Below are positions 21,628 to 43,499 of a DNA stretch of 64,000 nt, piece by piece. The translations under genes were made by a program, and so were the position numbers. The stretch covers positions 1 to 64,000 of the forward strand of contig JAUVXV010000013.1 of the NCBI GenBank assembly GCA_030603365.1, read 5' to 3'. Under the pieces are notes generated by a model. The model was given only the letters and a program-made list of their open reading frames with translations, made no database searches and had not been told where the DNA came from. How positions within the stretch are numbered: the stretch's first letter is position 1; each line of letters starts with the position of its first letter. This DNA comes from Candidatus Heimdallarchaeota archaeon. GTDB lineage: Archaea > Asgardarchaeota > Heimdallarchaeia > Heimdallarchaeales > Heimdallarchaeaceae.

Positions 21628-23313
21628 ATGACACCGCCTATTGGTACGTCTAAATTAGAAGAACCCATAAACTCCATATTGGTACCAAGTAGACATTTAT
21701 ACAATCAGATTTTCAATATCTCTTCACTATCTAAATTTTTATTCCTTGGTATTTTGTATGTATTTTTCTATTTTGTGATATACATTCTAAAGATATATTA
21801 CATTAATTCTGTTTATTTCCCAATTATTGCAATATTCGTGATTTTCACTGGTTTTCTAGTCTGGTCTTCCAGTTTCTTTGTAATGTTCTCGATAACAGGG
21901 TCTAATGTTGAAAAATCATTAGTAAAAAAAATTTTTCCCGTTTTGATAATATTAGGAATATTAACAGCTTATCTAGCAATAGTAATTGAAAATAAATTCC
22001 TAACTCTTGTAACCATTTTAACTGAAACCCCTTTATTTTTTGGTGTTGCCGTTAACATTTCTTTTGCTCAATTAGTTAACATAATTTTTTATGTGTATGT
22101 AGTTCCAGTTCTTGAAGAAATTGCAAAAATTTTTCCTATTTTAATCTTGATGGGTAATTTTGCTAAGATATCTATAAGAGATAGGAAAATACTAACACCT
22201 CTAACTCCATCACATCGTACTATTGTCTTATTTGGAGGGTTTTTTGGTGCCTGGTTTGACTTATTTGAGCAAATTTTGTCCTTTTCTGTTTCATCGAATG
22301 TAGTCTCATTAATCTCTAATAGATCTATATACCCTCTTCATAGTGTAACTGCAATGATAACAGCTTTTGGAGTTGGTTGGATTTTTGTTAGTCGTAAGAA
22401 CCTAAATAAGATATGGAAATTCTTGATATTTCTAGTTTCTCTTACGGTTTCCAGTATTTTCCATGGTTTGTGGAACAACAACTATTGGATTGAAGATGAT
22501 CCAATTTTACGCTTAAATAACTTAACAATTTTGGGGTATGTTTCTTATGGATTATTTGCACTTTTTCTTATATGGATATTAATCAAAGTGCCAAAACTGT
22601 GCTCTAACTGTTATAGTGAACATTTAGCAAAAGAGTGTACTATATTTAGTTCTGTTTCGAAGAAACACAAAATTAACCTTGAAAAAAATAAAATAATCAA
22701 AGACATATATGACGAATCTTCTGGCTTGATGCGGTGTCCTGAATGCCAGGTTCATCTATACAATGGTGAGTTCTGTATAAACTGTTGGTCCTTTCCAAAA
22801 CTACAATGTGAAAATTGTAATCAGATTATTCCTGCATTTTCTCGGAATTGTTGGGCATGTGGGACTGAAGTCCCATCATTGATTGATAAAATGTCTTCCT
22901 CTTCTCCTCCAATGTACATTAACATTGCTGTAGGATTTACACGAATTCTTGGTATGGGAATAATTGTCGTGTTCTTTTTTATTTTTCTAAATGCATCAAA
23001 TACATTAGTTTTCCTCGGAAATACAATTTTCTTACTTGGGGTAATAATTTCAATTGGTATTACTATTATCTGGTTCAAATCAAGTGAAAATAGAGTCAAA
23101 TCAATGTTGACATCGATGAATGTAACATCGATTATAGCTTTAAACATAATTATAATGGTTCTTTATTTGGTTATTTTTGGGTCACTTTTAATAATCTCAA
23201 TAGCACAATTATTTTTTGGTTTACTAGGGATAAGTCTATTACTCCTATTAGCTATAGGGTGCATATTTTTCCTTTCTAAAGTAATTGGAGGTACTAATTT
23301 AATAATAATTTAG
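21628..23313 (+). CDS. PrsW-family intramembrane protease with a double zinc ribbon
   Basis: PVLEEIAK, FDLFE, PLHSV and FHGLWN motifs; CxxC pairs (CSNC, CPEC/CINC, CENC/CWAC); additional TM helices. Confidence 0.8.
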   Translation: MTPPIGTSKLEEPINSILVPSRHLYNQIFNISSLSKFLFLGILYVFFYFVIYILKIYYINSVYFPIIAIFVIFTGFLVWSSSFFVMFSITGSNVEKSLVKKIFPVLIILGILTAYLAIVIENKFLTLVTILTETPLFFGVAVNISFAQLVNIIFYVYVVPVLEEIAKIFPILILMGNFAKISIRDRKILTPLTPSHRTIVLFGGFFGAWFDLFEQILSFSVSSNVVSLISNRSIYPLHSVTAMITAFGVGWIFVSRKNLNKIWKFLIFLVSLTVSSIFHGLWNNNYWIEDDPILRLNNLTILGYVSYGLFALFLIWILIKVPKLCSNCYSEHLAKECTIFSSVSKKHKINLEKNKIIKDIYDESSGLMRCPECQVHLYNGEFCINCWSFPKLQCENCNQIIPAFSRNCWACGTEVPSLIDKMSSSSPPMYINIAVGFTRILGMGIIVVFFFIFLNASNTLVFLGNTIFLLGVIISIGITIIWFKSSENRVKSMLTSMNVTSIIALNIIIMVLYLVIFGSLLIISIAQLFFGLLGISLLLLLAIGCIFFLSKVIGGTNLIII

Positions 23314-23324
23314 GTGAAATATGA

Positions 23325-24326
23325 ATGGGTATTGATCGCAGACAACAATATGTTCCTCCAAAACCGAAGAAAGATAAGGAAGATTCACCTACGTTTAAAC
23401 TGGAATTTCGTTATCTTTTAACCAAATTCATTTTTCCTCACATGAAAAATAGAGGAAAAAGGGAATATGTGGGGATTCTAATTAGAAGAATATCCACATA
23501 TCTTGCAATAAGTTATGCAGTTTCAATTTTCTTTGGAATTGTTCTTTTTTATTTAGATGATTTGTCGATTATTTATGGAACTGTGTGGAATCCTGAAGAA
23601 ATTCTGTATTTGCCATTTCTTTTTACTTTTATGTCTCAAGAAGCAGAAGCTCTTATAACAAGCTATGTTCTTACAGTCTTTGTACCTTTCTTGATAGCTG
23701 CTACTATTTGCGCGTTAATTTGGAGAGACGAAGCAAGAGATTTAGTGTTGATGTCATCATTTATTACCTTCGGACTTTTTATCATTCTACATTTATCACA
23801 ACTTATAATTTTCACTTCAATCGCTGCAAGTGTCTCAGGCATTTTCTCAGGATTTTGGTACATTGCTTATGTTTTTCTTTTCTCCCTCTCCTTTCTGATT
23901 ATAAGTGCTCTTGGAGGTTCAATAGGAGTTAGAATTGGTAAAATTCTTACAAATGTATTTTTCTCAAGGAAGGGAGCAAAAATCTATTATTCACATCTTC
24001 TTAATCCGGAGATGCCTTTATCTGTTAAAACTATTTTTGATTTGGAAAAACCTCCACAAAGAGATGATAGACGATTTAATGCAATATCAATGGTTTACTT
24101 GCACAATCGAGTTGTAAAATTACTTAAATCATCACAGAAGAAACATTGCACCTATTTTACTGAAGGTAAATGTGCTTATTTAGGTTATACAACATCGGTT
24201 CATAAATATCAGATTTGCGTTACAGATTATTGGCCACTATGTAAGGTATATGCCTTCTTAAGTCAAAGTAAATTTCTTCTTAAAGAATCATCGGTAGGTG
24301 AAAATAATGTCAAAAAGGGTTCGTAA
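23325..24326 (+). CDS. Multi-pass membrane protein with a C-terminal 4-Cys cluster
   Basis: About four TM helices; C-terminal HCTYF..KCAY..ICV...LCKVY. Confidence 0.7.
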   Translation: MGIDRRQQYVPPKPKKDKEDSPTFKLEFRYLLTKFIFPHMKNRGKREYVGILIRRISTYLAISYAVSIFFGIVLFYLDDLSIIYGTVWNPEEILYLPFLFTFMSQEAEALITSYVLTVFVPFLIAATICALIWRDEARDLVLMSSFITFGLFIILHLSQLIIFTSIAASVSGIFSGFWYIAYVFLFSLSFLIISALGGSIGVRIGKILTNVFFSRKGAKIYYSHLLNPEMPLSVKTIFDLEKPPQRDDRRFNAISMVYLHNRVVKLLKSSQKKHCTYFTEGKCAYLGYTTSVHKYQICVTDYWPLCKVYAFLSQSKFLLKESSVGENNVKKGS

Positions 24327-25095
24327 GTTGTTCAATGTAAGAATCATTCTTCTTCTTACCTGCATTATTGTTTTCATTTTACTAAACAGTACTCAAGAAA
24401 GTTTTGTACAAATAAGTGATATGGCATCAACTACTTTAGTAACAACAGATACCGGTACTGAAAGTTTTACAGATACATATTCCGAGCTAACGCCTACAGG
24501 TCCAACTTTTCCTACTTATAACCCACCTGATACAAACAACAATGGAGGAATTATAGATGGTGGAAACAGACCCATGTTACCTGCTCAAGTTATACCAATA
24601 ATAATTGGAACTGTAATAGGTGTATTAATCATTGCTTTACTACTTCAGAGAAGAAGAGCTGAAAAGAGTTCTGGATACTTTAAACAATTAGAAAGGTCTT
24701 CACCTTCTATAGTAAGAAGAAAAAGGGAGAAGTTTAGAACACAGATTAGTACATTAGTTGAAATTCTTACTGAATATCTTGAAGAAGGAAAATATACTGA
24801 GGGAGTAATCTACGGATATCATCAATTAGATAAGAATACAAAAAGAATACTGGGAACTCGGAGAGAAACCTATCTTACTCCAAAAGAATTTGCGAGTTCA
24901 CTAGAACTTCCTGAGATAATTGTTCCGCTGAAATGGATCGTAGAAACCTTCTATGTGGCAAGATATAGAATATCCCCTATGGGCTATGAGGATTTGAAAG
25001 AGTTCATTATACATTTACAAACTCTCAAAGAGATGAGTAAATCTGGCGCTGATATCAAAATTATTAGAAGAGATATTGATGGTGATGAAGAATGA
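24307..25095 (+). CDS. DUF4129-like domain membrane protein (module 1)
   Basis: Signal/TM, Thr/Pro linker, second TM, then YLTPKEF...FYVARY (the DUF4129-type T-x-E / F-x-x-ARY pattern). Confidence 0.7.
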   Translation: MSKRVRKLFNVRIILLLTCIIVFILLNSTQESFVQISDMASTTLVTTDTGTESFTDTYSELTPTGPTFPTYNPPDTNNNGGIIDGGNRPMLPAQVIPIIIGTVIGVLIIALLLQRRRAEKSSGYFKQLERSSPSIVRRKREKFRTQISTLVEILTEYLEEGKYTEGVIYGYHQLDKNTKRILGTRRETYLTPKEFASSLELPEIIVPLKWIVETFYVARYRISPMGYEDLKEFIIHLQTLKEMSKSGADIKIIRRDIDGDEE

Positions 25096-26384
25096 GCTTA
25101 TCGAAAGGATTGTTTTCTAAAAAATACTCTCCATTTTTCAAGATGTTTATTCAAACACTTCTTCTTTTCGTTGTTCTTACATTGCCTTTGAGTCTTAATA
25201 TTACCAGTACTCCCCCACCATATACAATGAATGATACTGGCCCAAGTGGGATGTCCACATTCTCTAATCTTCTTCTTCACAATGGTTATAATGTGACTAG
25301 AACAATCTTATCAACTGAACCCATCAAGGATCTGCCTCCTTCTTCTGTTCTGGTAATTGCAGGAGGAGCAAAAAAATATCGCGATTCAGAAAAAGCTGTA
25401 ATAAATGCTTTCATTGCTAACGGTGGAACCATACTACTTCTTGCAAGTGAAGGGGTATCATATGATTTAGCAGAATATCTCGGATTTTATATCACTTCTT
25501 CAATTTTACTGGATACAGCTGCCTCAAATACAACTCCTTCTCCCGATATATTACTGATTGAATCACCATTTAATTCAAGTGACACCCTATGTTTCTTTAG
25601 AGCTAAGCATATAATAACTGTTGCAGAGAGTCCTCACCAATGGTTGGTTAGTTCTATTAAAACACCTAATACTACCTTCATTGACGAGAACAATGACTAT
25701 CAGTGGAACGTAGTATATGAACCTATTAGAATACATACTGTTGCCACAGTAATAAGGAGAGGATTAGGAACTATTATAATGGTAACTTCAACCAGTTTCC
25801 TAACAAATGATCTCTCAAATTTAGGTTTCAATAATATTAATACTACTTTACAAATCTTAGGCAATATAACTTCGAGTGAACAAACATTGGTCTGTTTTGA
25901 AGAAAGTCATAAGAGGTGGCCATTTACTACAACAGATGGAATAATTAACCAGACATATGGAACTATTATCCTACTATCGAAAACAAAACTTTTCATTTTT
26001 TTGGTTATTATTATACTTCTGCTCTTTTACTATCTAACACCAAGGTTTAGAGAAACATATAAGATGAGAGAATCGTATAAAAAATTCATCTCTGACAGGA
26101 TGTGGAGTAGACGAAGAGAACTTTTCGATACATTTGGTACGGCAATTAAACCCACGGTAGAGGAGAAGTATCTTACATACCTATACTTTCAACATGAATT
26201 GTATCCTAGTAGGGCTTATAATTATTTTATTGCAGAGAAATTAAAATTCATTCCTACACGTTCATTAAATGAGGAAGAGAGAGAGCTCTTTGAGCTTGCA
26301 TTAACAAGAAAACTAGATCATCAAAGTTTCTTATTTCTATTCAAGAAATTGGAAGAAATACAAAAAAGAGGCCGATTTGAATGA
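25092..26384 (+). CDS. DUF4350/GldG-like extracellular domain membrane protein (module 1)
   Basis: NDTGPSGMSTF, FIANGGTILL, GLGTIIMV, FLTND and FEESH, followed by a TM helix; ATGA overlap with the upstream gene. Confidence 0.7.
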   Translation: MSLSKGLFSKKYSPFFKMFIQTLLLFVVLTLPLSLNITSTPPPYTMNDTGPSGMSTFSNLLLHNGYNVTRTILSTEPIKDLPPSSVLVIAGGAKKYRDSEKAVINAFIANGGTILLLASEGVSYDLAEYLGFYITSSILLDTAASNTTPSPDILLIESPFNSSDTLCFFRAKHIITVAESPHQWLVSSIKTPNTTFIDENNDYQWNVVYEPIRIHTVATVIRRGLGTIIMVTSTSFLTNDLSNLGFNNINTTLQILGNITSSEQTLVCFEESHKRWPFTTTDGIINQTYGTIILLSKTKLFIFLVIIILLLFYYLTPRFRETYKMRESYKKFISDRMWSRRRELFDTFGTAIKPTVEEKYLTYLYFQHELYPSRAYNYFIAEKLKFIPTRSLNEEERELFELALTRKLDHQSFLFLFKKLEEIQKRGRFE

Positions 26385-27325
26385 CACAAATACAAGAAAC
26401 AAAAGATATTTTTAATAAAATTATGGATGAAATGAAAAAGAGAATTGTCGGAAATGAGAATGTCATTGAGCTGATGTTTGCTTCTCTTTTGAGTGGAGGA
26501 CACATTCTTCTAGAAGGTGTTCCTGGTATTGCTAAAACATTAATGGCTAGCACTTTAGCTGAAGTAATAAAAGTGGATTTCAAACGAATACAGTTTACTA
26601 GTGATTTGATGCCAGCTGATATTACAGGTGGCAATATTTATGATAGAGAAACTAGTTCTTTTAATTTCATAGAAGGACCAGTTTTCGCTAATGTTTTACT
26701 AGCTGATGAAATCAATAGAAGTCCCCCAAAAGCACAATCCGCTCTTCTAGAAGCAATGCAAGAAAAGCAAGTATCGATAGGTAGAACAACTTACAAACTT
26801 CCAGAACCATTTATGGTAATTGCTACTCAAAACCCTATAGAATCTACAGGAGTATATCCTTTACCAGAAGCTCAAATCGATCGTTTCTTACTAAAAATAC
26901 CTGTTTATCCTCCAACATTACATGGTGAAGTACAGATGCTTCTGAAGAAGAAAGAAAAAATGTTTGCTGATATTGATGTTATAACAAAGATAGAAAAAAT
27001 TCTCAAATTGTCAGCAGAAATTGAAAAGGGTGTAATAATAAGTAACCAGATTATTGAATATATAGCTAAACTAGTTGTTGCAACACGTACCGTACCTTCT
27101 GTTGCTCTAGGCGCTAGTCCCAGAGGATCAATTGCTTTACTAACACTTGGTAGATCAATAGCTGCTATAAGAGGAAGAGATTACGTTGAACCTGATGATA
27201 TAAAATCCATTTTCTATCCAGTAATGAATCATAGACTCATTCTTTCTCCTGAAGCAGAAATTGAACAAGTTCGAATATCAGAAATTATTGAAAACATACT
27301 CGCGGATGTGGAAGTAGTAATCTAA
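26381..27325 (+). CDS. moxR: MoxR-family AAA+ ATPase (module 1)
   Basis: GHILLEGVPGIAKT, RIQFTSDLMPAD, LADEINR, ATQNPIE, LPEAQIDRF and GASPRG. Confidence 0.95.
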   Translation: MTQIQETKDIFNKIMDEMKKRIVGNENVIELMFASLLSGGHILLEGVPGIAKTLMASTLAEVIKVDFKRIQFTSDLMPADITGGNIYDRETSSFNFIEGPVFANVLLADEINRSPPKAQSALLEAMQEKQVSIGRTTYKLPEPFMVIATQNPIESTGVYPLPEAQIDRFLLKIPVYPPTLHGEVQMLLKKKEKMFADIDVITKIEKILKLSAEIEKGVIISNQIIEYIAKLVVATRTVPSVALGASPRGSIALLTLGRSIAAIRGRDYVEPDDIKSIFYPVMNHRLILSPEAEIEQVRISEIIENILADVEVVI

Positions 27326-27347
27326 ATTAGACATCGAGGAAAATATT

Positions 27348-28724
27348 ATGCAAGAAGATAGGCATCTAGAACTCACAAAAAATGGAAAAATATTCATATT
27401 ATTTGGAAGTTTATTTGTAACTGTAGGGTTAGCTATCGATAATTACCTACTTATAATTCCTGGTGTGTTCTTCTTGTTAATCATATCTTCTACTTTCTCT
27501 AATTTTCTTCTAACCCAGAATGCAAATATCTCAGCTAATTTGAGAATATCAAAAAACTATATGCGAAGTAGAGGGCTTTTAGCAGTATCTGTGGAATTAA
27601 CAAATAATTCGAATAAAAAAATCAAAATGAAAGCAAGACTTAGATTCTCCTATCATTTTCAAACGATAAATGTACCAGAACAAGTGTTCCTTGAATTGAA
27701 ACCTGAACAAAGTAAGAAATTGGTGTGGATACTTCTTGGAGTTAGAAGGGGAAACGCAGAAGTTGGACCTGTTGAAATAGATATTGGTCCCTTTCAATAT
27801 CTGTTCAAACAAACCAGAATTCTGAAAGTGGTCGAATATATCAAAATTCTTCCTCAAAGACCTAGAATCAATATTCCTTGGAAAACAAAGAAGGAGCTTC
27901 TTCTTAAAATGGTTCATGAATTTGCTAAAAGAGTGAAAGGTCGTGGAGATGAATTTTTCGCTCTCCGAGATTATATGCCCGGTGATGAAGTTAAGCATAT
28001 AGATTGGTATGCTACTGCTAGGCATGACAAACTTATAACTAAGGAGTTTGAGGATGAAAGAAATCTCCATTTTCTTGTCTATCTGGATCTGGGAAGTACA
28101 ATGTTTGGTCCAAAGTTCGAATATGCTTTGTCTTCTGTAGTCGAACTTTCTTCACTCATTAGAGGTACAAATCATGATCTAGCTGTAATTGCTTATGGTG
28201 ATAATGTTAGTCGTTTCATAGTTCCTCAAGTAGGGAAAAATGAACTAAAATTGATGCTTAATATCTTTGATGTGGAAGCTTCTGGCGTTGAAAGTAATTT
28301 TATTAATGCAATTAAATTTACAAAGTCCAATCAGCTGTTACATTCTATTGCTATAATATTCTCAGATTTGGAAGGTGATTTAAGAAACAAGCTTCAAGGA
28401 TTACATCTTCTGAAAACAATGGGGAGTAGAGTGATATTTGCCAACTTCTCAACTATGGGTTTCAATATTCTTGCATCACCAGATTGGGCAATAGAAAATG
28501 CACAAAATATAGAATACAAAGATATCATGCAAGAGGTATATCCTAGTTTAGTTAAAGATGATTATTTCTCAAGAGAAAAACAACTTAGACAAATTCTGTA
28601 TTCAGTAGGTGGAGATTATGTAGAAGTGGGAGGATATATGGATAACATAATTCTATCTCTCTATAGATTAATGAGAAAGTATTCACCTTCTCAAAGGTTA
28701 GTTCAACAAGCATTGGGGCGATAA
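27348..28724 (+). CDS. DUF58 / vWA-like MoxR partner (module 1)
   Basis: EFFALRDYMPGD..HIDWYATAR, KEFEDE and a degenerate MIDAS (LDLGSTM); N-terminal TM pair. Confidence 0.88.
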   Translation: MQEDRHLELTKNGKIFILFGSLFVTVGLAIDNYLLIIPGVFFLLIISSTFSNFLLTQNANISANLRISKNYMRSRGLLAVSVELTNNSNKKIKMKARLRFSYHFQTINVPEQVFLELKPEQSKKLVWILLGVRRGNAEVGPVEIDIGPFQYLFKQTRILKVVEYIKILPQRPRINIPWKTKKELLLKMVHEFAKRVKGRGDEFFALRDYMPGDEVKHIDWYATARHDKLITKEFEDERNLHFLVYLDLGSTMFGPKFEYALSSVVELSSLIRGTNHDLAVIAYGDNVSRFIVPQVGKNELKLMLNIFDVEASGVESNFINAIKFTKSNQLLHSIAIIFSDLEGDLRNKLQGLHLLKTMGSRVIFANFSTMGFNILASPDWAIENAQNIEYKDIMQEVYPSLVKDDYFSREKQLRQILYSVGGDYVEVGGYMDNIILSLYRLMRKYSPSQRLVQQALGR

Positions 28725-28725
28725 A

Positions 28726-29571
28726 ATGAGGCTTAGAGATAAAGTATTTGAGGATGACTGGGAACAAGCTACACGAGAAACACAAAGATCTTCTCTTGTT
28801 ATCTTAGCGCATCATTTTTTTGGTATCGCAGCAATAGCTATCATTATTCTTCAATCTGCAATAAGCTTGAACATATATATTTTCACAATTTGGCTAGTAT
28901 TAGGCTTAATTATCTTACTATTGGATATTTCTAGAGGAAACAAGTTAAATTTAGGAAATGAATTAGCGTTTGGGTTCTTTTTTATTTTTGGAACAGCTTT
29001 CTCGCTCTTGTTGGGTAATTTCAATTCAATGTTCTTTCCTGATACCCTTGGTAGAATTGACATAATACTTTTCCAAATCTCAGCAGGGGTTTGTGTTGTA
29101 ATTAGGTTGTTATTAACCTTATATTATATGGAATTTAGAACACATGATGGATTCTTCATTATTCCTACAAGTAACTACTCCCAGGATCAACTCAAACAGT
29201 ATCAAGATAATCTTACACTCACTGATTTTGAGCAGGAGAAAAGTGAAAAAGAAGGATTTTTGAAAAATTGGAGACTTCTATTCCAACAGATGTTGTGGCC
29301 ACTAGTTATCATAATTATTCTAATTATAGTTGCTGTAGCTTATTCCTTCATGATTTATTTCATAATCCCAAATGACTCAATAGCAGAGCTTATCATCAGA
29401 CCATCTTTGATTGTAGTAGCTATTCTCTATACTCTCTTACTCTTAAGAACTCATACGATACTACCTCAAATAAAAAATGAAGCAGAGTTATCACCCGAAA
29501 CAGAAGAAGACATCGAAGAATCAGATGAAATAATAGATGATATTGACAAAGAAATTTTCGAAGATGTATAA
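28726..29571 (+). CDS. Multi-pass membrane protein with an acidic C-terminal tail (module 1)
   Basis: About six TM helices; tail EEDIEESDEIIDDIDKEIFEDV. Confidence 0.75.
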   Translation: MRLRDKVFEDDWEQATRETQRSSLVILAHHFFGIAAIAIIILQSAISLNIYIFTIWLVLGLIILLLDISRGNKLNLGNELAFGFFFIFGTAFSLLLGNFNSMFFPDTLGRIDIILFQISAGVCVVIRLLLTLYYMEFRTHDGFFIIPTSNYSQDQLKQYQDNLTLTDFEQEKSEKEGFLKNWRLLFQQMLWPLVIIIILIIVAVAYSFMIYFIIPNDSIAELIIRPSLIVVAILYTLLLLRTHTILPQIKNEAELSPETEEDIEESDEIIDDIDKEIFEDV

Positions 29572-29631
29572 TTATATTTATGTATATTAGTACTAGTATA
29601 ATATAACATATTTATCAGTAATAGAGAAAAT

Positions 29632-30336: not shown

Positions 30337-30376
30337 ATTATTCGTTCAACAACGTGTGGGGGTAAACAATTTTCAT

Positions 30377-30397
30377 TTCAAATACTCAGTATTTGAA
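30377..30397. promoter_or_regulatory. Perfect 10-1-10 palindrome, candidate operator in the thyX / module-2 divergent region
   Basis: TTCAAATACT-C-AGTATTTGAA, about 40 nt upstream of the thyX start. Confidence 0.45.
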
Positions 30398-37446: not shown

Positions 37447-37879
37447 TGGATTCTTTGGATTCTTTAAGAAACGGAAACAAGTAAAAGCTTTGAACCAGAT
37501 GTTCACATCAGTTATGGCTGATGTTAGAATTTTCGAGCAAAGGCAAGATTACAAAGGAGCAGTAATAGCTTCTTTTGGCGGTTTAACAAACATTGCTGGT
37601 GGTCTTCTTGAATTAGCTCGTGCTCCTTACCAAACAGGTAGAGAATTTGGTTTCCAAGTGGCTGACAAAGCAAACATATCAAGTGAAGTTATGGATGAAT
37701 ATCTTACTTCATTTGAGATTGCTAGATATACAGATGCTGAGATAACTTACGACGATTATCAAGAAGCAGTTCAGAGATTAGATATCTGTTTCAGAGGTAT
37801 AAGAGAACAGGGTGTAGAAGTAGTTGAGCCAGCAAGAACCCAAACAAAGGCAAGGAAGAAGATTAAGAGAAAGGATTAG
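37436..37879 (+). CDS. Stand-alone DUF4129-like protein (module 2)
   Basis: YQTGREF...FEIARY; overlaps the upstream stop codon. Confidence 0.72.
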   Translation: MSHSGFFGFFKKRKQVKALNQMFTSVMADVRIFEQRQDYKGAVIASFGGLTNIAGGLLELARAPYQTGREFGFQVADKANISSEVMDEYLTSFEIARYTDAEITYDDYQEAVQRLDICFRGIREQGVEVVEPARTQTKARKKIKRKD

Positions 37880-39485
37880 AGGAATAAATCTCAACTTCAC
37901 TAAATATACTATAGTGATGTCTATCCTCTTCTTGATTGTAGTGGTACCTATATTATTAGGGATAGTAGGTCTAGGTCGAGCTGGTATGAAATTCAGTATT
38001 TATAATGATAATTGGGATGGTCTATCAAGTTTACGAGTATCACTTCAAAGTGAAGGTTATACCAACATAACTAATGGAATGTCGTCTTTGTCATTACTAA
38101 ATCGAGTGTATGAACCAGGTGTTCTTGTTATAATGGGTCCAGCTACCCAATATTCAACAACAGATACTATATCATTGATAACGTTCTTAGCAAGAGGAGG
38201 TAGTCTGTTAGTTGCGGATGATTATGGAACGGGAGCTGAAATCTTTGAACCATTATTCAATATCTTAAATACGTGGGAAGAAGTAGCAGCTCTAGCTGGC
38301 TTGGCTTCATTAACAGACTTGTTTGGATTTGGTGCAAATGAATCTGAAGGACTAACCGAAGAAGCACTGATGTTTGAAATGTTAGGGATGCTCAGAGGTT
38401 TTGCATTTAATGGTTCGGTTCTAATGGACGCGGGTAGTTATACAACTAATCCAGCACAACCTGTTTTGATAAATATGGAACCTTCAAATCCATTAACCGC
38501 AGGTGTCACTAGACTTCAGATGGAATTTGGTACTGTGTTAAGCATCGCAATTCATCATCCATTATATATAGATAGTGGAGGGACTGAAACAGTTAAAACA
38601 TACCAAACAGATTGGATGCCTTTACAAGCAGTTACTTTGGAATTATTTGGTATGGAAATAGAGAATCAATTCCTTCCATTCTTACCATTTTACACAACTA
38701 CATCAGCTTGGTTAGAATCTGATTTTCAATCAGCAAAAGAAGGAACTGCCACACCAGATGTGGAAGAATGGGGGGGAGTAATGTTTTCTCCAATCATGAC
38801 TCTACCTATTGGCTCAGGTAAGATTGTAATGATAGGAGATCCTGATATATTCATCAATAAATGGATAGATCAAACTACAGAAAATGATAATTTACAATTT
38901 AGTTTAAATCTTTTTAATTATCTTACCGAAGATTTAAACGTAACATATAATCCCAGATCAGCACAAATTATTTTTGATGAGGGTCATACTCATCAGAAAT
39001 TCTACAGTGCTTCTGTTTACTCAATGACCATAATGAGATTTCTGACAGAAATGTCAATGTTTCCATTATATTCTCCGTTTATCCCAATAATTTTTGCAGT
39101 CTTGGGATATAAACTAATTCCTAAAAAATCAAGACTTTCTCCTGTTCTTTGGACAAAATATAGAGGAGAAAAAGGTAAGTCTAGGTTTGAAAGAGAAATA
39201 CGAAGAATCACGGAAACGGGAGCATATAGTGAGGCAGTGGGGTTGTTATATCGAACCTTAGTTAGAGGTTTAAGAAAGGTGTCAAAACAATCGATGTCGA
39301 CACCAGAAGAAATTGCAGGATTCTTCTCAGAAAGAGATACTTCTATGAGGTATAAAGATCTGCATGAAACTTTAGTTAGAATAGATAATTATCTGGCAAA
39401 ACCAAAGATTCTGCCTGAGCATCTGTTCATGAAATATATGGCATTCATTAAGGGGTTAATTGATAGATTACCCAAAATTAAGTAA
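37824..39485 (+). CDS. DUF4350/GldG-like membrane protein (module 2); start uncertain
   Basis: FSIYNDNWDGLS, FLARGGSLLVADD, GSGKIVMIGDPDIFIN and IFDEGH, followed by a TM helix and a cytoplasmic helical domain. Confidence 0.78.
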   Translation: MSQQEPKQRQGRRLRERIRGINLNFTKYTIVMSILFLIVVVPILLGIVGLGRAGMKFSIYNDNWDGLSSLRVSLQSEGYTNITNGMSSLSLLNRVYEPGVLVIMGPATQYSTTDTISLITFLARGGSLLVADDYGTGAEIFEPLFNILNTWEEVAALAGLASLTDLFGFGANESEGLTEEALMFEMLGMLRGFAFNGSVLMDAGSYTTNPAQPVLINMEPSNPLTAGVTRLQMEFGTVLSIAIHHPLYIDSGGTETVKTYQTDWMPLQAVTLELFGMEIENQFLPFLPFYTTTSAWLESDFQSAKEGTATPDVEEWGGVMFSPIMTLPIGSGKIVMIGDPDIFINKWIDQTTENDNLQFSLNLFNYLTEDLNVTYNPRSAQIIFDEGHTHQKFYSASVYSMTIMRFLTEMSMFPLYSPFIPIIFAVLGYKLIPKKSRLSPVLWTKYRGEKGKSRFEREIRRITETGAYSEAVGLLYRTLVRGLRKVSKQSMSTPEEIAGFFSERDTSMRYKDLHETLVRIDNYLAKPKILPEHLFMKYMAFIKGLIDRLPKIK

Positions 39486-39503
39486 AGGAAAAAGTGAAAA
39501 AAA

Positions 39504-40505
39504 ATGAGTGAAGAAAAAAGTGAAGAAGTGAAAGGAAAAGCAAAAACAACTACTGAGGCAGTTGTTACTCCTAAAGATGTTAAGAGAGTATGGGATGAAA
39601 TCTACAGCGAACTAAGCAGAGTCATCATTGGCAAATTGGACGTTCTTGAAGATATGTTCATCTCATTATTAGCAGGAGGACATTGTCTTTTAGAAGGTGT
39701 TCCAGGTATTGCTAAAACTGTTATGGCGAAGACTTTTGCAATGACTCTAGGATGTGAGTTTAAACGTGTGCAATTTACACCAGATCTTCTGCCATCAGAT
39801 ATTGTAGGTACTACCATTTATGATCCTAAAGCAGGAACATTCAAAATGAGAAAAGGGCCTATCTTTACCAATATCCTTCTAGCAGACGAAATTAACAGAA
39901 GTCCTCCAAAAACACAAGCAGCGCTCTTGGAAGCAATGGGAGAAAAACAAGTTACAGTTGAAGGTACAACTTTCAAGCTTGAAGATCCATTCTTGGTCAT
40001 CGCGACTCAGAACCCCATTGAGCAAGAAGGAACATATCCGTTACCAGAAGCTCAGGTTGACAGGTTCATGTTTAAGCTCTTAGTTGGTCTTCCTTCTCCA
40101 GAAGAAGAAATGGACATTATCAAGCTTAAGCACAAACAAGTCAGACAAACTGTTAGAAGAGTTACAACTCCTATGACTATTGTCAAGATGAAAGAGACTG
40201 TTGAATCCAAAATATATTTACATGAAGATTTGATGGTGTATATCAAAGATTTAGTAGTATCGACAAGAACAGATCCCAGATTAATGCTTGGTGGAAGTCC
40301 CAGATGCAGTATTGCTTTATTGAATGCTTCTAAATCTGTTGCTGCAATGAGAGGTAGAGATTATGTTATCCCAGATGATATTAAGAGGATAGCAAGAGTA
40401 GCTACTGCTCATAGATTGCAAATGAAACCAGAAGCAGAACTTGAAGGAACCACTGGTACAATGGTTGTCAATGAGATATTGAGAAACTTACCAGTACCTG
40501 TGTAG
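39504..40505 (+). CDS. moxR: MoxR-family AAA+ ATPase (module 2)
   Basis: GHCLLEGVPGIAKT, RVQFTPDLLPSD, LADEINR, ATQNPIEQEGTYPLPEAQVDRF and GGSPR. Confidence 0.96.
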   Translation: MSEEKSEEVKGKAKTTTEAVVTPKDVKRVWDEIYSELSRVIIGKLDVLEDMFISLLAGGHCLLEGVPGIAKTVMAKTFAMTLGCEFKRVQFTPDLLPSDIVGTTIYDPKAGTFKMRKGPIFTNILLADEINRSPPKTQAALLEAMGEKQVTVEGTTFKLEDPFLVIATQNPIEQEGTYPLPEAQVDRFMFKLLVGLPSPEEEMDIIKLKHKQVRQTVRRVTTPMTIVKMKETVESKIYLHEDLMVYIKDLVVSTRTDPRLMLGGSPRCSIALLNASKSVAAMRGRDYVIPDDIKRIARVATAHRLQMKPEAELEGTTGTMVVNEILRNLPVPV

Positions 40506-40532
40506 TATAACAGTGGAAATAGGTGGAAAATA

Positions 40533-41984
40533 GTGTTTACACGCCGTGGTGGCTGGCTAATCTTTGCTGGAATTGTGATGATTAGCGTAGGCTTTGCACT
40601 GGCTGGTTATTTATCGTTAAACGTTATGTTTGATTCGTTTGGATTGAATCCACAACCTAATGATACTTATGTAGATCCAGGAGTATCTCAAGGATTTGGT
40701 GTAATGGACTTTCTTCATTTCTATATGGATAGGGCGGGGACATTAATCTGGTTCTTCATAATTGGAGGCGTAATGTTAATCTTTTCAGTACTCTTAGGTT
40801 TGCCTTTCTATAGGTTAGGGGCTAATCCCAAATCAATAGAAATCAAAAGAAGAGTATCCAAACCTAAAGCTTTTGCTGGAGATTATCTCTACATTGAAGT
40901 AACTGCCAGAAATAAGTCTGTAAATCAATTACCAACAATAGAAATTTATGATGCAATTCCAGAGGTTTTTGATCTAGTTTTAGGAGAAAATTTCATAGTA
41001 ACGCAACTGAATCCTAGACAAACCATATCCTATGGGTATGTTGTACGAATACCTATTCGAGGATTATTTGAGATTGGACCAACTAAGGTTATAATCAGAG
41101 ATCGAATGGGTTTCTATGCAACCGAAGGTAAAATTAGATCAAAAACAGAGATACTTGTTTATCCAAGCTATGAAGATATTAAGAAACTAGAGATGGTTGG
41201 TAAAAAACGTCAATTAGGGCTTCTATTTGGTGTGCATAGGACTAAGCTAAAAGGGATGGGTACTGAATTTTGGGGTATCCGTAAATATCAAACTGGTGAT
41301 GCTTTCAAATTCATTGATTGGAAAGCTTTCTCTCGTTCTGGTAAAATGATGGTTCGCGAATTTGAGTCTGAAGAAAATATTCGTCTTCTTATCATGATCG
41401 ATTCCTCTGCTAGTATGGGGGCTGGTTTACCTCGAAATACCAAACTTGAATATGCTATCCGTAGTGCTGTTCTTCTCATTCATCTGGGTTTCGAGAAGAG
41501 AGATCTTGTTGGTTTGTGTGTTTATGGTGATAAGGTGAGGAATTGGGTAGACTTAACTTCTACTAGAACTCGTTTATTCCAGTTCCTTGAAGTATTAGCT
41601 CACACTAAACCTGAAGGTGAGTCAGATCTAGAAACTGCGATAGCGTATGTTCTTCAGAGGGTTAAACGTTCTGCTTACATAGTTATACTTACCGATCTTG
41701 AATCTCATCCTGAGCGCATGATTCAAGCAATTAGAAGAGCTAGAGCTAGGAAACATAATATAACTGTTCTATCACCATTCGGTCCATGGTTTGAAATTGT
41801 TTCTCAACAGCTTTCACCAGTAGAACAGATGATTGGCTATGCTATGGTCGAGAAACAATTAGGGGAACGCCAGAATATGTTTAAGATGCTACGAAGATAT
41901 GATGCAGTTTCAATATCTGTTGGTCCAGATGATTTCTTACCAACAGTAATGGCTCAATTCAATAGGATGCAAAGACAAGGGTGA
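40533..41984 (+). CDS. DUF58 / vWA-like MoxR partner (module 2)
   Basis: EFWGIRKYQTGD..FIDWKAFSR, REFESE and a canonical MIDAS IDSSAS. Confidence 0.9.
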   Translation: MFTRRGGWLIFAGIVMISVGFALAGYLSLNVMFDSFGLNPQPNDTYVDPGVSQGFGVMDFLHFYMDRAGTLIWFFIIGGVMLIFSVLLGLPFYRLGANPKSIEIKRRVSKPKAFAGDYLYIEVTARNKSVNQLPTIEIYDAIPEVFDLVLGENFIVTQLNPRQTISYGYVVRIPIRGLFEIGPTKVIIRDRMGFYATEGKIRSKTEILVYPSYEDIKKLEMVGKKRQLGLLFGVHRTKLKGMGTEFWGIRKYQTGDAFKFIDWKAFSRSGKMMVREFESEENIRLLIMIDSSASMGAGLPRNTKLEYAIRSAVLLIHLGFEKRDLVGLCVYGDKVRNWVDLTSTRTRLFQFLEVLAHTKPEGESDLETAIAYVLQRVKRSAYIVILTDLESHPERMIQAIRRARARKHNITVLSPFGPWFEIVSQQLSPVEQMIGYAMVEKQLGERQNMFKMLRRYDAVSISVGPDDFLPTVMAQFNRMQRQG

Positions 41985-41990
41985 AAAAAA

Positions 41991-43499
41991 ATGGAATCAT
42001 TATCAGATACAAGAGTTATTGACCTTGGAATAAGAGGAGTTCAACGAAGGATTAAGGGCGCAAGAACCCAAACAGTGATTACACATGTAATTGGAAGATC
42101 GTTAGCAATAGGAGCTATAGCTTGGGTACTAGTGCAAATCTTCACTCTCATAGCCTTTGATGACCCTGCTAGATTCCCTGAAGGATATTTTATTGATTCA
42201 CTTTCATTCATTTTTGTGTTAATTGAGTTGATTGCTATTATAATATTTACTGCCCCATTGATGATTTTTGTTGCATTTCTAGGAGATGATGCATCGGGAA
42301 TTCTATTAGGTGCAAGAGCTTTCCTTACAGGAGACCTATTTGGTAGTATTAGTCCTCCATCTGGGGTGGATAGTAATCTGCTCTTTGGAAGTACAGCATT
42401 AGACATATTCTCACCATTTGTGTATCTTTTTGGTGGAGAAATACTCCAGCCACTAAGAATTGCAAATCGAGCATCATTCATGTTATTTTTCATAGTAATT
42501 CTAGTAATAGCTCTTGTAGCATTCCTGTTTAGAGCTGAGATGCGATCTGCTGCTGCTGCATTCATTAGTATACAAGTTATCATCTTTCATGGAAGTGTAC
42601 AACGACTGTTCAGTTCCAGCTTTAGTTTCTCACCAACAAATAATATAGGGGAGCTCTTTTCGAACAGTGTAGTTCTGATTGCACTCTCGTCGTACTTATT
42701 CCTAGAAATAGCTTTACAAATCTCGTATATCTCGCAGCTACTCAATCCAGCGCAAAGTAGACAACAGCGTGTACTCAGAGCACTTACTAGATTAAATGAT
42801 TTTAGGCTTGGAGTAACAACAAGTCCAGCTCAGCAACAAATTGTGACTGCTGAATCCGATGAAGATGGTGACGAACGACAGTCTACAAAATCTATTGGAA
42901 GCACGGGGAGTTCTATTGCACGTAAATTTGGTGTTGCGGGAATGACTTATTTCTTAGAAAAAGCTTCTGATTCATTATTTTCTCGTCCAGGCGGACAACA
43001 AGATAAACTAACTTCAAGGTTACAGAGATACCATGATGGTTTAGTACACAGTGATCCAAGAGTAGATGAGAAGCTTGTTGGAGCAGAAGTTACAGTTAAA
43101 CCACTAATGACAATAGTATATGTACTCACATCAGTCGTGTTTAGAGTTTTCATAATGTTAGCAGGATTGTATGCAATACTTAATCCAAATGTTTTATTAT
43201 TTGTTTTAAGATATCCAGAGCCAATTTACAATTCACTAGAGATGTTGCAACCTGAGGGAGTAGTGTTATTACTCATTCCTATTGTAGTAATAATCTTATT
43301 GCTTACTTCTCTAATTGGCTTCATACAAGAAAGATTCTCAAAAAGATTTGAAGATGCTCTAGACCCAATGTTAGCTGACCAAGAATTCTATGAAGAAGAA
43401 CTTCCAGGGATTATTACAGAAGGAGAGTTAGAACCTATAACTGAAGAAGAGATGTTTTATGATAGACTCTCTGAAGAATTTGGGGAAGAAGAAGATTAA
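41991..43499 (+). CDS. Multi-pass membrane protein with an acidic C-terminal tail (module 2)
   Basis: About seven TM helices, a large cytoplasmic loop and a strongly acidic tail (EEEMFYDRLSEEFGEEED). Confidence 0.78.
   Translation: MESLSDTRVIDLGIRGVQRRIKGARTQTVITHVIGRSLAIGAIAWVLVQIFTLIAFDDPARFPEGYFIDSLSFIFVLIELIAIIIFTAPLMIFVAFLGDDASGILLGARAFLTGDLFGSISPPSGVDSNLLFGSTALDIFSPFVYLFGGEILQPLRIANRASFMLFFIVILVIALVAFLFRAEMRSAAAAFISIQVIIFHGSVQRLFSSSFSFSPTNNIGELFSNSVVLIALSSYLFLEIALQISYISQLLNPAQSRQQRVLRALTRLNDFRLGVTTSPAQQQIVTAESDEDGDERQSTKSIGSTGSSIARKFGVAGMTYFLEKASDSLFSRPGGQQDKLTSRLQRYHDGLVHSDPRVDEKLVGAEVTVKPLMTIVYVLTSVVFRVFIMLAGLYAILNPNVLLFVLRYPEPIYNSLEMLQPEGVVLLLIPIVVIILLLTSLIGFIQERFSKRFEDALDPMLADQEFYEEELPGIITEGELEPITEEEMFYDRLSEEFGEEED

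Follow-up and report, generated by a model that had tools for sequence, protein, structure and literature searches.

Two tightly packed operons in the window (the whole 64,000-nt stretch of Candidatus Heimdallarchaeota DNA that was analysed) encode two lineage-specific versions of a widespread DUF4129/DUF4350/MoxR/DUF58 membrane module. On the reading that we favour, with modest confidence, a membrane-tethered MoxR-DUF58 chaperone acts on the DUF4129 tails of both versions. The modules are lineage-specific variants of a known system and do not constitute a new kind of system.

Two seven-gene operons separated by thyX

An ORF check of the window places all 14 ORFs on the + strand, with ATGA start/stop overlaps at 25092, 26381 and 33778 and with remaining intra-operon junctions of −56 to +27 nt, bearing out the first-pass annotation's description of two tightly packed operons. 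The features are as follows:

21628..23313, +: M1a, 561 aa, polytopic PrsW-family (M82) protease domain with zinc ribbons (PF13367, E 6e-12)
23325..24326, +: M1b, 333 aa, 5-TM protein with C-terminal Cys/His cluster (TM and Cys positions)
24298..25095, +: M1c, 265 aa, bitopic protein with DUF4129-like tail (hhalign 95%, E 3.5e-8)
25092..26384, +: M1d, 430 aa, DUF4350 protein (PF14258, E 2e-9; PF09822, E 3e-8)
26381..27325, +: M1e, 314 aa, MoxR-proper AAA+ ATPase (AAA_3, E 1.8e-64; AAA_lid_2, E 1.6e-22)
27348..28724, +: M1f, 458 aa, DUF58 protein with N-terminal TM hairpin and vWA-like domain (PF01882, E 2e-18)
28726..29571, +: M1g, 281 aa, 5-TM protein with acidic C-terminal tail (TM prediction, tail composition)
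29632..30336, −: thyX, flavin-dependent thymidylate synthase (PF02511, E 2.2e-60)
30337..30784, no strand: AT-rich intergenic region, 448 nt, between divergent thyX and M2a (sequence read)
30785..33781, +: M2a, 998 aa, TgpA-like pseudo-transglutaminase (profile match to 6g49)
33778..37446, +: M2b, 1222 aa, giant bitopic surface protein (DUF4129, E 4.8e-6, residues 1151-1205)
37436..37879, +: M2c, 147 aa, soluble stand-alone DUF4129 protein with basic C-terminal tail (PF13559, E 2.2e-5)
37824..39485, +: M2d, 553 aa, DUF4350 protein with TM helices (PF14258, E 3.7e-12)
39504..40505, +: M2e, 333 aa, MoxR-proper AAA+ ATPase (AAA_3, E 3.3e-66; AAA_lid_2, E 5e-21)
40533..41984, +: M2f, 483 aa, DUF58/vWA protein with TM hairpin (DUF58, E 3e-32; VWA_2, E 9e-14)
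41991..43499, +: M2g, 502 aa, ~6-TM protein with acidic tail (single-copy Asgard family, adjoins DUF58)

Pfam thus assigns PrsW, DUF4350, MoxR, DUF58 and DUF4129 families at this locus. The separation by thyX and its upstream region was also correctly described: thyX lies on the − strand and is followed by the 448-nt gap, which presumably holds putative promoters of both thyX and M2a. thyX is a separator between the operons and no part of the system; its position is kept in the fetched loci of the family Heimdallarchaeaceae, and the flanks of the two operons are housekeeping genes. Every locus fetched from the same genus or the same family shows the two-operon layout, a recurrence far above chance expectation. 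The gene order said to be common to both operons, with two lead genes in each, needs correction at its start: M2b is the DUF4129-tailed counterpart of M1c and not a second lead gene.

The two modules are only partly homologous

The first-pass annotation had read the operons as twin paralogous versions, arisen by duplication and acting together as one undescribed envelope system, which we regard as very improbable. The thyX-separated pair is indeed retained in 3/3 Heimdallarchaeaceae genera with fetched loci, one closed genome included. Against this, homology extends to four of the seven positions: the DUF4129 tail, DUF4350, MoxR (49% identity) and DUF58 (24%). The lead genes are unrelated, and hhalign detects no homology between M1g and M2g (probability 2.5%). 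On the question of duplication versus independent acquisition, the MoxR tree returns two separate deep clades: M1e falls in an M1 clade (support 100/99), M2e falls in a phylum-wide M2 clade, and the two clades parted before the radiation of the order. Side-by-side modules are confined to the family Heimdallarchaeaceae; families f2-f4 carry the modules on different contigs, with up to two M1-type copies per genome. The system, moreover, had already been described in 2015. Partial homology, the deep MoxR split and the separate loci in families f2-f4 largely refute duplicated twins.

The acidic tails ascribed to the terminal multi-TM proteins are real in the window (16 and 19 D/E among the 45 C-terminal residues) but are not conserved: the net charge of the last 40 residues ranges from −14 to +13 in relatives.

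Module 1 is headed by a PrsW-zinc-ribbon protein

The module 1 seven-gene unit was found in Heimdallarchaeia only, where it recurs across four families of this order as well as in a second one, and the PrsW-zinc-ribbon gene is fixed as its head in five families. M1a comprises a PrsW membrane protease domain, a cytoplasmic triple zinc ribbon and 3-4 further TM helices. In particular, it has all four PrsW motifs (EEIAK163, FDLFE210, PLH and HGLWN279) and five CxxC pairs, confirming the PrsW protease with zinc ribbons that had been proposed as the head of the module. The ten Cys are invariant in 14 members of the family, including copies lacking the protease motifs. M1a resembles Bacillus subtilis PrsW (M82) in its PF13367 domain with all four motifs; its triple zinc ribbon, its additional TM helices and its fixed place within a MoxR operon set it apart. 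We found no paper bringing PrsW and MoxR together.

The proposed Cys-cluster TM protein is likewise present: M1b has four Cys at 275-306, and it matches no Pfam or NCBIfam model and no known family. Its positional equivalents, of 210-270 aa with 4-5 TM helices, are found at every M1-type locus, with a Cys count of 0 to 6. TM helices of M1c (alternative ATG start at 24307) are predicted at 11-29 and 98-116: the first belongs to an N-terminal TM/signal segment, and the second divides a short Pro/Thr-rich ectodomain from a DUF4129-like tail on the cytoplasmic side; a Pfam search gave no match, and the tail aligns with the M2c/DUF4129 family profile (hhalign 95%, E 3.5e-8). In M1d, a signal anchor and a C-terminal TM helix (helices at 19-37 and 292-310) flank an extracellular GldG/ABC_transp_aux-like domain, and ~120 aa form a cytoplasmic tail. 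The TM hairpin of M1f is formed by helices at 12-30 and 33-51. Its MIDAS site is degenerate (DLGST), and the site is lost in some M1-type copies; a MIDAS-based grip is therefore not general. M1g has no Pfam match and belongs to no known family.

These features bear on whether module 1 is a regulated-proteolysis signalling system, in which PrsW would cut M1c or M1d upon an envelope signal, MoxR-DUF58 would extract or unfold the stub, and the zinc ribbons would dock cytoplasmic partners. Bacillus PrsW is the site-1 protease that cleaves the anti-sigma factor RsiW; the four motifs are intact in M1a and its subclade; the gene keeps its leading position in five families; and several family f3 copies have lost both the protease motifs and the DUF58 MIDAS Asp. 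However, the seven-gene unit persists, zinc ribbons included, in one whole M1a subclade that has lost the protease motifs; the unit can therefore do without proteolysis. Archaea, to our knowledge, have no sigma or anti-sigma factors, so that a substrate of the Bacillus type is not possible; the operon contains no transcription factor gene; and module 2 has no protease. We accordingly give this reading a low probability.

Module 2: the Heimdall version of an operon shared across Asgard archaea

In M2a, N-terminal TM helices precede a large extracellular domain. The protein's match to Transglut_core (E 0.007) is under the cut-off, and a profile of 16 orthologues matches the structure of the TgpA periplasmic domain (6g49, E 0.0011). 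The catalytic Cys is replaced in 16/16 orthologues, and His and Asp are also replaced in the window's copy, in agreement with the dead transglutaminase first proposed to lead the module. M2b comprises a signal segment, ~ten beta-sandwich (macroglobulin/Ig-like) domains, a TM helix (1072-1090) and a cytoplasmic DUF4129 tail. Its AF2 model (pLDDT 67) is nearly all beta, and a Foldseek search with the ectodomain finds alpha-2-macroglobulin/CD109/TEP domain arrays (E down to 5e-17); the predicted structure thus upholds the earlier description of an Ig-repeat surface protein. M2c, for which TM prediction gives no helix, is 27% identical to the M2b tail and 83-95% conserved within the genus. In M2d, whose TTG start is uncertain, an extracellular domain lies between a signal anchor and a TM helix, and the cytoplasmic tail (~125 aa) has no significant likeness to DUF4129 (hhalign 1.3%). 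The genome encodes a third DUF4350 domain, which is part of a subtilase fusion. The MIDAS site of M2f is intact (DxSxS), with D290, S292 and S294 conserved phylum-wide. M2g belongs to a family found only in Asgard archaea in this analysis; it has a conserved, probably cytoplasmic loop (residues 241-374), no match in a Pfam search and an AF2 model (pLDDT 71) with no convincing structural match in the PDB or the Atlas.

Elsewhere in Asgard archaea, the protein encoded just before the core combines TgpA_N, Transglut_core (E 1e-13 to 1e-19), Big_3_5, MG2 or MG4, and DUF4129. The ancestral module 2 head was a single TgpA-like protein, ordered as TM, transglutaminase-like domain without catalytic Cys, macroglobulin/Ig array, TM and DUF4129, and was split in this order into M2a and M2b. 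The catalytic Cys is absent from the transglutaminase-like domain in 21/21 Asgard copies examined, and module 2 therefore cannot act as a TgpA enzyme. The variable head position is thus occupied by protein-processing folds in both modules: PrsW in module 1 and the transglutaminase fold in module 2.

The module 2 core, comprising a DUF4129 protein, DUF4350, MoxR, DUF58 and a ~480-aa membrane protein, is Asgard-wide. Gene order is conserved in relatives, as had been expected: among the 12 distant Asgard loci fetched, the core is collinear in 10 and DUF58 adjoins M2g in all 12. M2g is single-copy in 152/201 sampled Asgard genomes, and the M2 clade of the MoxR tree tracks kinship ranks (family, order, class). 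The Heimdall lineage has, in module 2, its own form of an operon that is single-copy, vertically inherited and shared across Asgard archaea. In sister family f3, the head genes and the DUF58-MoxR-M2g genes occupy separate loci, and cis coupling of the module 2 parts is therefore not obligatory.

Within the genus, MoxR and DUF58 are 68-95% identical, versus 39-78% for the ectodomain proteins. Fast-evolving ectodomains, together with weak secondary bpMoxR matches (E 2.8e-12 and 1.5e-7), would fit a MoxR-vWA ternary-type biological-conflict or defence system with the surface proteins as sensors. That function is scarcely credible: AAA_3 scores far above bpMoxR, neither a beta-propeller nor an effector domain is present, the flanks are housekeeping genes, and the single-copy, phylum-wide, vertical M2 core is unlike defence islands.

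Relation to known systems

The envelope system that the first-pass annotation took to be undescribed has a published model. Makarova, Galperin and Koonin described in 2015 an arCOG01314 (DUF4350)-associated putative novel secretion or membrane-remodelling system of archaea, with Ig-like proteins in a DUF4350-MoxR-vWA neighbourhood (PMC5898192). Both there and here, the DUF4350 protein has a signal segment and a C-terminal TM helix and stands in one predicted operon with COG0714 MoxR, a DUF58-type vWA protein, Ig-like surface proteins and small 2-5-TM proteins (PMC5898192). The DUF4129 tails, the PrsW-zinc-ribbon head, the transglutaminase-like head and the M2g family are present here and are not in that description, and its S-layer-like component, DUF1616/arCOG02884, was not found at this locus. 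We found no paper assigning a function to the module and no expression data for these operons.

We take PA2875 and PA2874 of P. aeruginosa to be a MoxR ATPase and a DUF58 protein, and Rv3690 to be the DUF4129 protein heading the mycobacterial cluster Rv3689-Rv3695. In PA2875-PA2874-tgpA (PMC3507681), as here, MoxR and DUF58 lie beside a membrane protein with an extracytoplasmic transglutaminase fold, and the TgpA_N and C-terminal DUF4129 of the Asgard relatives' head proteins extend the likeness. Unlike TgpA, an active, essential enzyme, the Asgard domains lack the catalytic Cys and the window's protein is split into M2a and M2b; DUF4350 and M2g genes are added. A DUF4350-MoxR-DUF58-SpoIIM-like-RDD cluster is present in M. 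tuberculosis (Rv3689-Rv3695) and in M. chelonae (BB28_RS01875-01900), where it is co-regulated (PMC8191103). It shares the DUF4350, MoxR and DUF58 core followed by polytopic membrane proteins; here, however, the terminal membrane proteins are neither SpoIIM nor RDD (no Pfam match), and large ectodomains and head genes are added. The Bifidobacterium PFNA cluster, pkb2-fn3-aaa_atp-duf58-tgm (PMC8430577), likewise groups a beta-sandwich-repeat surface protein, MoxR, DUF58 and a membrane transglutaminase, but is headed by a Ser/Thr kinase, lacks DUF4350, has a transglutaminase presumed active, and is bacterial and host-associated.

Topology and proposed mechanism

DUF58 is anchored in the membrane by its N-terminal two-helix hairpin. 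A K/R-rich stretch follows the hairpin in both DUF58 proteins, and by the positive-inside rule the vWA domain probably lies on the cytoplasmic side, unlike the vWA protein drawn as secreted in the 2015 model (PMC5898192). MoxR has no TM helix and is thus a cytoplasmic AAA+ ATPase. The DUF4350 and DUF4129-tailed proteins are each bitopic and lie mostly outside the cell, and the DUF4129 domains of M1c and M2b are C-terminal to the last TM helix. Topology and gene pairing thus agree with the earlier proposal of a cytoplasmic AAA+ motor coupled through DUF58 and DUF4129 to ectodomains; we infer the MoxR-DUF58-DUF4129 binding that this coupling would entail.

It is unlikely that the modules are a protein secretion system with a channel built from the polytopic M1g, M2g and M1b, with MoxR-DUF58 powering or gating the export of the large surface proteins, and with the GldG-like DUF4350 domain as an outer component. 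Secretion was the preferred model for this gene set, with DUF4350 linked to GldG of the gliding/type IX apparatus (PMC5898192); a polytopic protein always follows DUF58, and giant surface proteins are in the same operon. However, the N-terminal signal-like segments of M2b and its relatives are ordinary, suggesting Sec export; M1g and M2g are unrelated and match no known channel fold; and where the operon is minimal, its DUF4129 protein measures just 143-172 aa, leaving nothing large for export. MoxR-family ATPases, including RavA, CbbQ and NorQ, are known as maturation chaperones rather than translocation motors.

In the tethered-chaperone mechanism that we favour, a MoxR hexamer would dock onto the membrane-tethered DUF58 adaptor and would remodel, driven by ATP, the cytoplasmic DUF4129 tails of bitopic surface proteins; the DUF4350 tail may also be a MoxR target. 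A link to surface-protein processing is in keeping with the protein-processing folds at the head position and with the subtilase fusion of the third DUF4350 domain, and the higher identity of MoxR and DUF58 within the genus sets this engine apart from the ectodomain proteins. The outcome would be control over the assembly, maturation or turnover of an extracellular complex comprising the DUF4350 domain, variable ectodomains and the head enzyme or pseudoenzyme. The system would thus be an inside-out chaperone for the processing or anchoring of surface proteins, and not a transporter.

Two compact operons separated by thyX

The window contains two tight blocks of plus-strand open reading frames (ORFs; n = 14), at 21628-29571 (module 1) and 30785-43499 (module 2), kept apart by minus-strand thyX and an AT-rich gap of 448 nt. 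Within the blocks, junctions range from -56 to +27 nt, with ATGA overlaps at 25092, 26381, and 33778; the MoxR-DUF58 gaps are 22 nt and 27 nt; and GGTG- or GAGG-like motifs lie 5′ of most internal genes in both blocks. The two packed operons of the first-pass annotation are confirmed, with all 14 ORFs and the three ATGA overlaps in place.

21628-29571, + strand: module 1 (M1a-M1g)
M1a: PrsW domain with four motifs, then five CxxC pairs (zinc ribbons) and further TM helices
M1b: 5-TM protein with a Cys cluster at its C-terminal end
M1c: bitopic protein; tail matches the DUF4129 profile (95%, E 3.5e-8)
M1d: DUF4350 protein (PF14258); N-terminal signal/TM segment and single C-terminal TM helix
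M1e: MoxR (AAA_3 E 1.8e-64, AAA_lid_2 E 1.6e-22); DUF58 gene directly downstream
M1f: DUF58 protein with a TM hairpin; MIDAS position reads DLGST
M1g: 5-TM protein with an acidic tail
29632-30336, - strand: thyX
30785-43499, + strand: module 2 (M2a-M2g)
M2a: 998-aa TM protein; weak transglutaminase match, below the Pfam cut-off in the window copy
M2b: 1222 aa; signal segment, ~1050 extracellular residues, TM helix, DUF4129 tail
M2c (37436-37879): 147-aa soluble DUF4129 protein
M2d: DUF4350 protein (PF14258); N-terminal signal/TM segment and single C-terminal TM helix
M2e: MoxR (AAA_3 E 3.3e-66, AAA_lid_2 E 5e-21); DUF58 gene directly downstream
M2f: DUF58 and VWA_2 protein; MIDAS DxSxS, kept phylum-wide
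M2g: 502 aa; ~6 TM helices, acidic tail

The flanks are unrelated to the blocks, with F420-related genes and a TPR protein gene upstream and an EF-2 paralogue downstream. An 83-aa ORF with a TTG start (21221-21472), directly 5′ of module 1, has no Pfam match. Sequencing runs matching the locus are DNA only, mostly labelled cold-seep or sediment metagenomes (shares ≤0.48); the sequencing-run search listed no RNA runs containing it.

The window thyX encodes 234 aa and has no intein; in a same-genus relative, G004, the inter-module thyX (L038:14962-16749) encodes 595 aa, including an intein with a LAGLIDADG domain within the Thy1 domain. A thymidylate-metabolism gene adjoins M2a upstream in two families: in Heimdallarchaeaceae it is the divergent thyX (29632-30336 in the window), and in f3, another family of the order, genome G030 has thymidylate kinase on the same strand as M2a, and genome G026 has an ORF of matching size (209 aa) at that position (loci compared, L016:18856-19485 and L018:2581-3210). 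The association may be leftover synteny.

Protein content of the two modules

M1a matches PF13367 above the gathering score (45.8 bits vs a cut-off of 23.5) and contains all PrsW motifs, EExxK/R, FxxxE, H, and HxxxN/D, at residues 163, 210, ~238, and 279, respectively; in both respects it resembles PrsW (MEROPS M82). No Ig-like protein is encoded in module 1.

Module 2 is led by a protein that the first-pass annotation had called a dead transglutaminase, and profile comparison bears this out. Specifically, a profile of 16 M2a orthologues matches the TgpA periplasmic domain of P. aeruginosa (6g49; E 0.0011), the match running through the LR..GIPAR..G and W.E scaffold. In the window copy the catalytic triad is replaced (Cys by Leu, His by Tyr, Asp by Gln). 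Across the order, the Cys column reads L, A, V, F, I, or S in 16/16 orthologues; the His column is Y or F within the family and is retained as His in two f3 copies, and the Asp column is Q or N in the orthologue alignment.

The predicted structure of M2b likewise agrees with its earlier description as an Ig-repeat surface protein. The AF2 model of the ectodomain is almost all beta, with ~10 putative sandwiches (pLDDT 67), and Foldseek matches it to macroglobulin-domain arrays (CD109, A2ML1, TEP1, and bacterial alpha-2-macroglobulin; E down to 5e-17) with low TM-scores, as expected of a flexible domain chain. Its Atlas neighbours are archaeal proteins combining Big_3_5, CarboxypepD_reg, or MG4 with DUF4129. 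M2c, which resembles the M2b tail (27% identity), is 83-95% identical within the genus, far above M2b, and has a strongly basic C-terminal tail that is retained in families f3 and f4. The predicted complex of M2c with the M2f cytoplasmic part (residues 95-483), given as alignments, scored 0.00, which counts neither way.

No fold could be assigned to M2g: the best Foldseek match in the PDB had E 0.28, Atlas matches had TM ≤0.23, and the wide VIA-align search returned generic helical bundles within helical-model noise (best Z 8.9). A single Pfam match to EMC3/TMCO1, in 1/24 members (E 5e-4), was treated as noise. NCBIfam gave no match for the ten unassigned proteins.

A common core with different heads and separate MoxR clades

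The first-pass annotation gives the two modules one gene order with different head genes. DUF4129, DUF4350, MoxR, and DUF58 occur in both; the lead genes have nothing in common, and M1g and M2g are not homologous even by profile (hhalign 2.5%). The M2d tail, tried as a fourth DUF4129 copy, reached 1.3% in hhalign. Because of these three results, the module-to-module alignment was corrected. Module 1 runs [PrsW-zinc ribbon + 5-TM head][bitopic DUF4129][DUF4350][MoxR][DUF58][polytopic], and module 2 runs [pseudo-transglutaminase head][giant bitopic DUF4129][soluble DUF4129][DUF4350][MoxR][DUF58][unrelated polytopic]. The idea that the acidic tails serve as a conserved ligand for the MIDAS or a pore was rejected, since the charge of the tail ranges from -14 to +13 in orthologues.

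Between the modules, identity is 49% for MoxR, 24% for DUF58, and 26% for DUF4350, the last over the N-terminal part only. In a maximum-likelihood MoxR tree (57 sequences, all from within the phylum), the M2 clade comprises 32 rows, is phylum-wide, and is in line with kinship ranks, and the M1 clade comprises 21 rows with support of 100/99; the third MoxR of the genome lies near the M1 clade with weak support. The two separate MoxR groups indicate that the modules are old paralogues or separate acquisitions and not the product of a local duplication.

Conservation and spread

The full layout, including thyX, is kept in every same-genus locus fetched and in two further Heimdallarchaeaceae genera, one with a closed genome, so that the expected synteny is present throughout the loci fetched from this family, to which Candidatus Heimdallarchaeum endolithica also belongs. 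Within the genus, identity is 68-95% for MoxR and DUF58 vs 39-78% for the ectodomain and head proteins. The shared layout would fit a cooperating twin pair, a rival reading; outside Heimdallarchaeaceae, the modules are not adjacent. Specifically, family f4 has M2b through M2g collinear (L032), and family f3 has module 2 in two loci, a head locus (tmk-M2a-M2b-M2c-M2d-folE) and a DUF58-MoxR-M2g locus.

The core of module 2 extends through the phylum (Promethearchaeota in Atlas labels). M2g is single-copy in 152/201 sampled genomes and occurs in 46/59 genera; DUF58 and M2g are adjacent in 12/12 distant loci; and a DUF4129 protein (143 to 2261 aa), DUF4350, MoxR, DUF58, and M2g are collinear in 10 of these 12. 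Directly upstream of the core, distant lineages encode a large TgpA-like protein with Transglut_core (E 1e-13 to 1e-19) and Big_3_5, CarboxypepD_reg, MG2, or MG4 domains; two have TgpA_N, one chain combining it with a DUF4129 tail. The catalytic Cys is absent in 5/5 sampled TgpA-like proteins of other Asgard lineages, which makes the pseudo-enzyme state ancient. In the Heimdall order, the TgpA-like protein is split into M2a and M2b.

The M1-type unit comprises genes for a ~600-aa polytopic zinc-ribbon protein, a 4-5-TM protein, a bitopic DUF4129-like protein, DUF4350, MoxR, DUF58, and a 5-6-TM protein. It also occurs in families f2-f4, where a genome has at most two copies, and in a second order of the class; two families further away have the PrsW-zinc-ribbon gene by itself. 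In family f5, of that second order, the unit has an extra upstream gene encoding 520-532 aa with 20 Cys and 6 TM helices (L071:14860-16458; L072:2591-4153); in the L071 copy, the N-terminal part has three double zinc ribbons (DZR, E 4e-16).

Ten zinc-ribbon Cys are invariant in 14/14 aligned M1a-type proteins, including a subclade without PrsW motifs, and in several f3 copies of that subclade the DUF58 MIDAS Asp is also gone. In particular, in f3 loci L015, L017, L024, L025, L026, and L028, QGG or AAG replaces DxS in DUF58, and the units belong to the subclade whose aligned lead proteins have lost the PrsW motifs and kept the ten Cys. It looks as if two presumed active sites had decayed together within an intact operon. 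Module 1 could alternatively be a PrsW-based regulated-proteolysis device, as the complete motif set of M1a would allow; the intact units of the motif-less subclade bear on the other side. PrsW acts in site-1 cleavage of a membrane anti-sigma factor; archaea are not known to have sigma or anti-sigma factors.

Homologue searches with M2g and M1a profiles returned Heimdall-labelled proteins only; the search was word-indexed, with a filter that narrows its reach, and these matches are therefore no proof of absence elsewhere.

Relation to known systems

Makarova, Galperin and Koonin (2015; PMC5898192, section 3.2 and Table 2) described operons in which arCOG01314 (DUF4350) is accompanied by a MoxR ATPase (COG0714), an Ig+vWA protein, S-layer-type proteins with Ig-like domains, and proteins with 2-5 TM helices, and proposed that the products form a novel complex for secretion or membrane remodelling. 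The window modules resemble this neighbourhood: M1d and M2d are DUF4350 proteins that begin with a signal/TM segment and have one TM helix in the C-terminal part; COG0714 MoxR and a DUF58-type vWA protein are encoded within one operon in both modules; and an Ig-like surface protein (M2b) and small polytopic proteins (M1b, M1g, and M2g) are present. They differ in that the arCOG02884/pfam07760 S-layer-like component, which is frequent but not universal in arCOG01314 operons (PMC5898192), has no Pfam match in the 14 proteins.

M1e and M2e, each an AAA_3 core with AAA_lid_2 beside a DUF58 gene, resemble MoxR-proper (MRP) ATPases. A conflict system of the MoxR-vWA-beta-propeller type would share the MoxR-vWA pairing; however, bpMoxR scores 46.6 and 31.1 bits vs 216 and 221 bits for AAA_3, and the window operons have no propeller or effector domain.

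In P. aeruginosa, PA2875, PA2874, and tgpA are transcribed together, and the periplasmic transglutaminase TgpA is both active and essential (PMC3507681). M2a is similarly a membrane protein whose extracytoplasmic part has the transglutaminase-core fold, and its gene is linked to those of MoxR and DUF58, but it differs in lacking the Cys-His-Asp triad, the Cys being gone in the 16 orthologues and the five other Asgard proteins alike. Mycobacterial Rv3689-Rv3695 comprises DUF4350, MoxR, DUF58, SpoIIM-like, and RDD genes, with locus tags whose order fits a DUF4350-MoxR-DUF58 cluster (PMC8191103), and the bifidobacterial PFNA cluster is pkb2-fn3-aaa_atp-duf58-tgm (PMC8430577). Unlike the bacterial DUF4350-MoxR-DUF58-SpoIIM-RDD module, M1g, M2g, and 34 relatives have no SpoIIM or RDD match. 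Both window modules run DUF4129, DUF4350, MoxR, DUF58, and a DUF4129 protein presumably precedes the DUF4350-MoxR-DUF58 core of the bacterial module as well.

No mechanism is assigned to the DUF4350/MoxR/DUF58 module in the literature found, and PrsW together with MoxR was not found in the literature searched. The two operons are a lineage-specific variant pair of a known, unsolved system and not a new kind of system; their identity as a DUF4129/DUF4350/MoxR/DUF58 membrane system is highly probable. The first-pass interpretation thus survives in its packed operons and conserved order, but not in its undescribed system, published in 2015 (PMC5898192), or its twin paralogues.

The genome has a third DUF4350 domain in a 976-aa protein (L036:8209-11139; G000 contig C1, about 646-649 kb) with a signal segment, a subtilase domain (Peptidase_S8, E 6e-43) ahead of DUF4350, and a C-terminal TM helix; DUF4350-matching ORFs of 970-1030 aa occur in most genomes of the order. 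The fusion hints that DUF4350 possibly works with extracellular proteases. The third MoxR locus (L035:400-11000; G000 contig C1, about 400-411 kb) is built unlike modules 1 and 2: its genes encode MoxR, proteins of 734 aa (4 TM helices), 247 aa, and 530 aa (8 TM helices), a DUF58/VWA_2 protein that lacks TM helices, a CARDB protein of 624 aa, and a protein of 733 aa with 11 TM helices. DUF4350 and DUF4129 are absent from this locus, and its orthologue in G030 (L053) has an identical beginning.

Proposed mechanism and implications

The domains, the TM segments, and the conservation of gene order are directly established. Given the positive-inside rule and a MoxR that resides in the cytoplasm, we infer a cytoplasmic position for the DUF58 vWA domain and every DUF4129 domain, and an outward-facing one for the DUF4350 domain, the macroglobulin/Ig array, and the transglutaminase-like domain. 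In MoxR-vWA pairs such as RavA-ViaA, CbbQ-CbbO, and NorQ-NorD, a vWA adaptor presents a target to an AAA+ ring for remodelling. A membrane-tethered MoxR-DUF58 chaperone would act on the tails that bitopic surface proteins extend into the cytoplasm, and tail remodelling would control assembly, maturation, or turnover of an extracellular complex of surface proteins. A MoxR-DUF58 chaperone acting on surface-protein tails is the most economical reading, and one we hold tentatively, at a little short of an even chance.

A true secretion system is a rival, in keeping with one half of the 2015 proposal. The variable head position has a protein-processing fold in each module, namely PrsW in the first and the transglutaminase fold in the second; together with the subtilase-DUF4350 fusion, these point to surface-protein processing or anchoring. 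The lack of a catalytic Cys in any Asgard copy examined suggests that the transglutaminase-like head likely has a structural role in Asgard archaea.

A broader reading, which we consider unlikely, would make the M2 core (the DUF4129-tailed giant macroglobulin/Ig protein, DUF4350, MoxR, DUF58, and M2g), single-copy, phylum-wide, and vertically inherited, a dedicated machine for assembly or anchoring of the main Asgard surface coat. If it were true, the pseudo-transglutaminase would be an ancient scaffold, M2g a new Asgard-specific membrane subunit, and module 1 a Heimdallarchaeia invention placing an intramembrane protease under the same AAA+ engine; the archaea most closely related to eukaryotes would then control their cell surface from the inside out.

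The DUF4129/DUF4350/MoxR/DUF58 module is among the most widespread membrane gene clusters of no known function, spanning archaea and bacteria, including mycobacteria and Pseudomonas, whose linked TgpA is essential. Among tractable hosts, Haloferax volcanii, Thermococcus (TON_1832 family), and M. smegmatis (Rv3689-Rv3695 homologues) have the homologous core. As a phylum-wide, single-copy operon with its own membrane subunit, M2g, the M2 operon probably belongs to the core of Asgard envelope biology, and this bears on how Asgard cells contact partners. The value of the locus lies mainly in Asgard envelope biology and in testable clues for the wider module.
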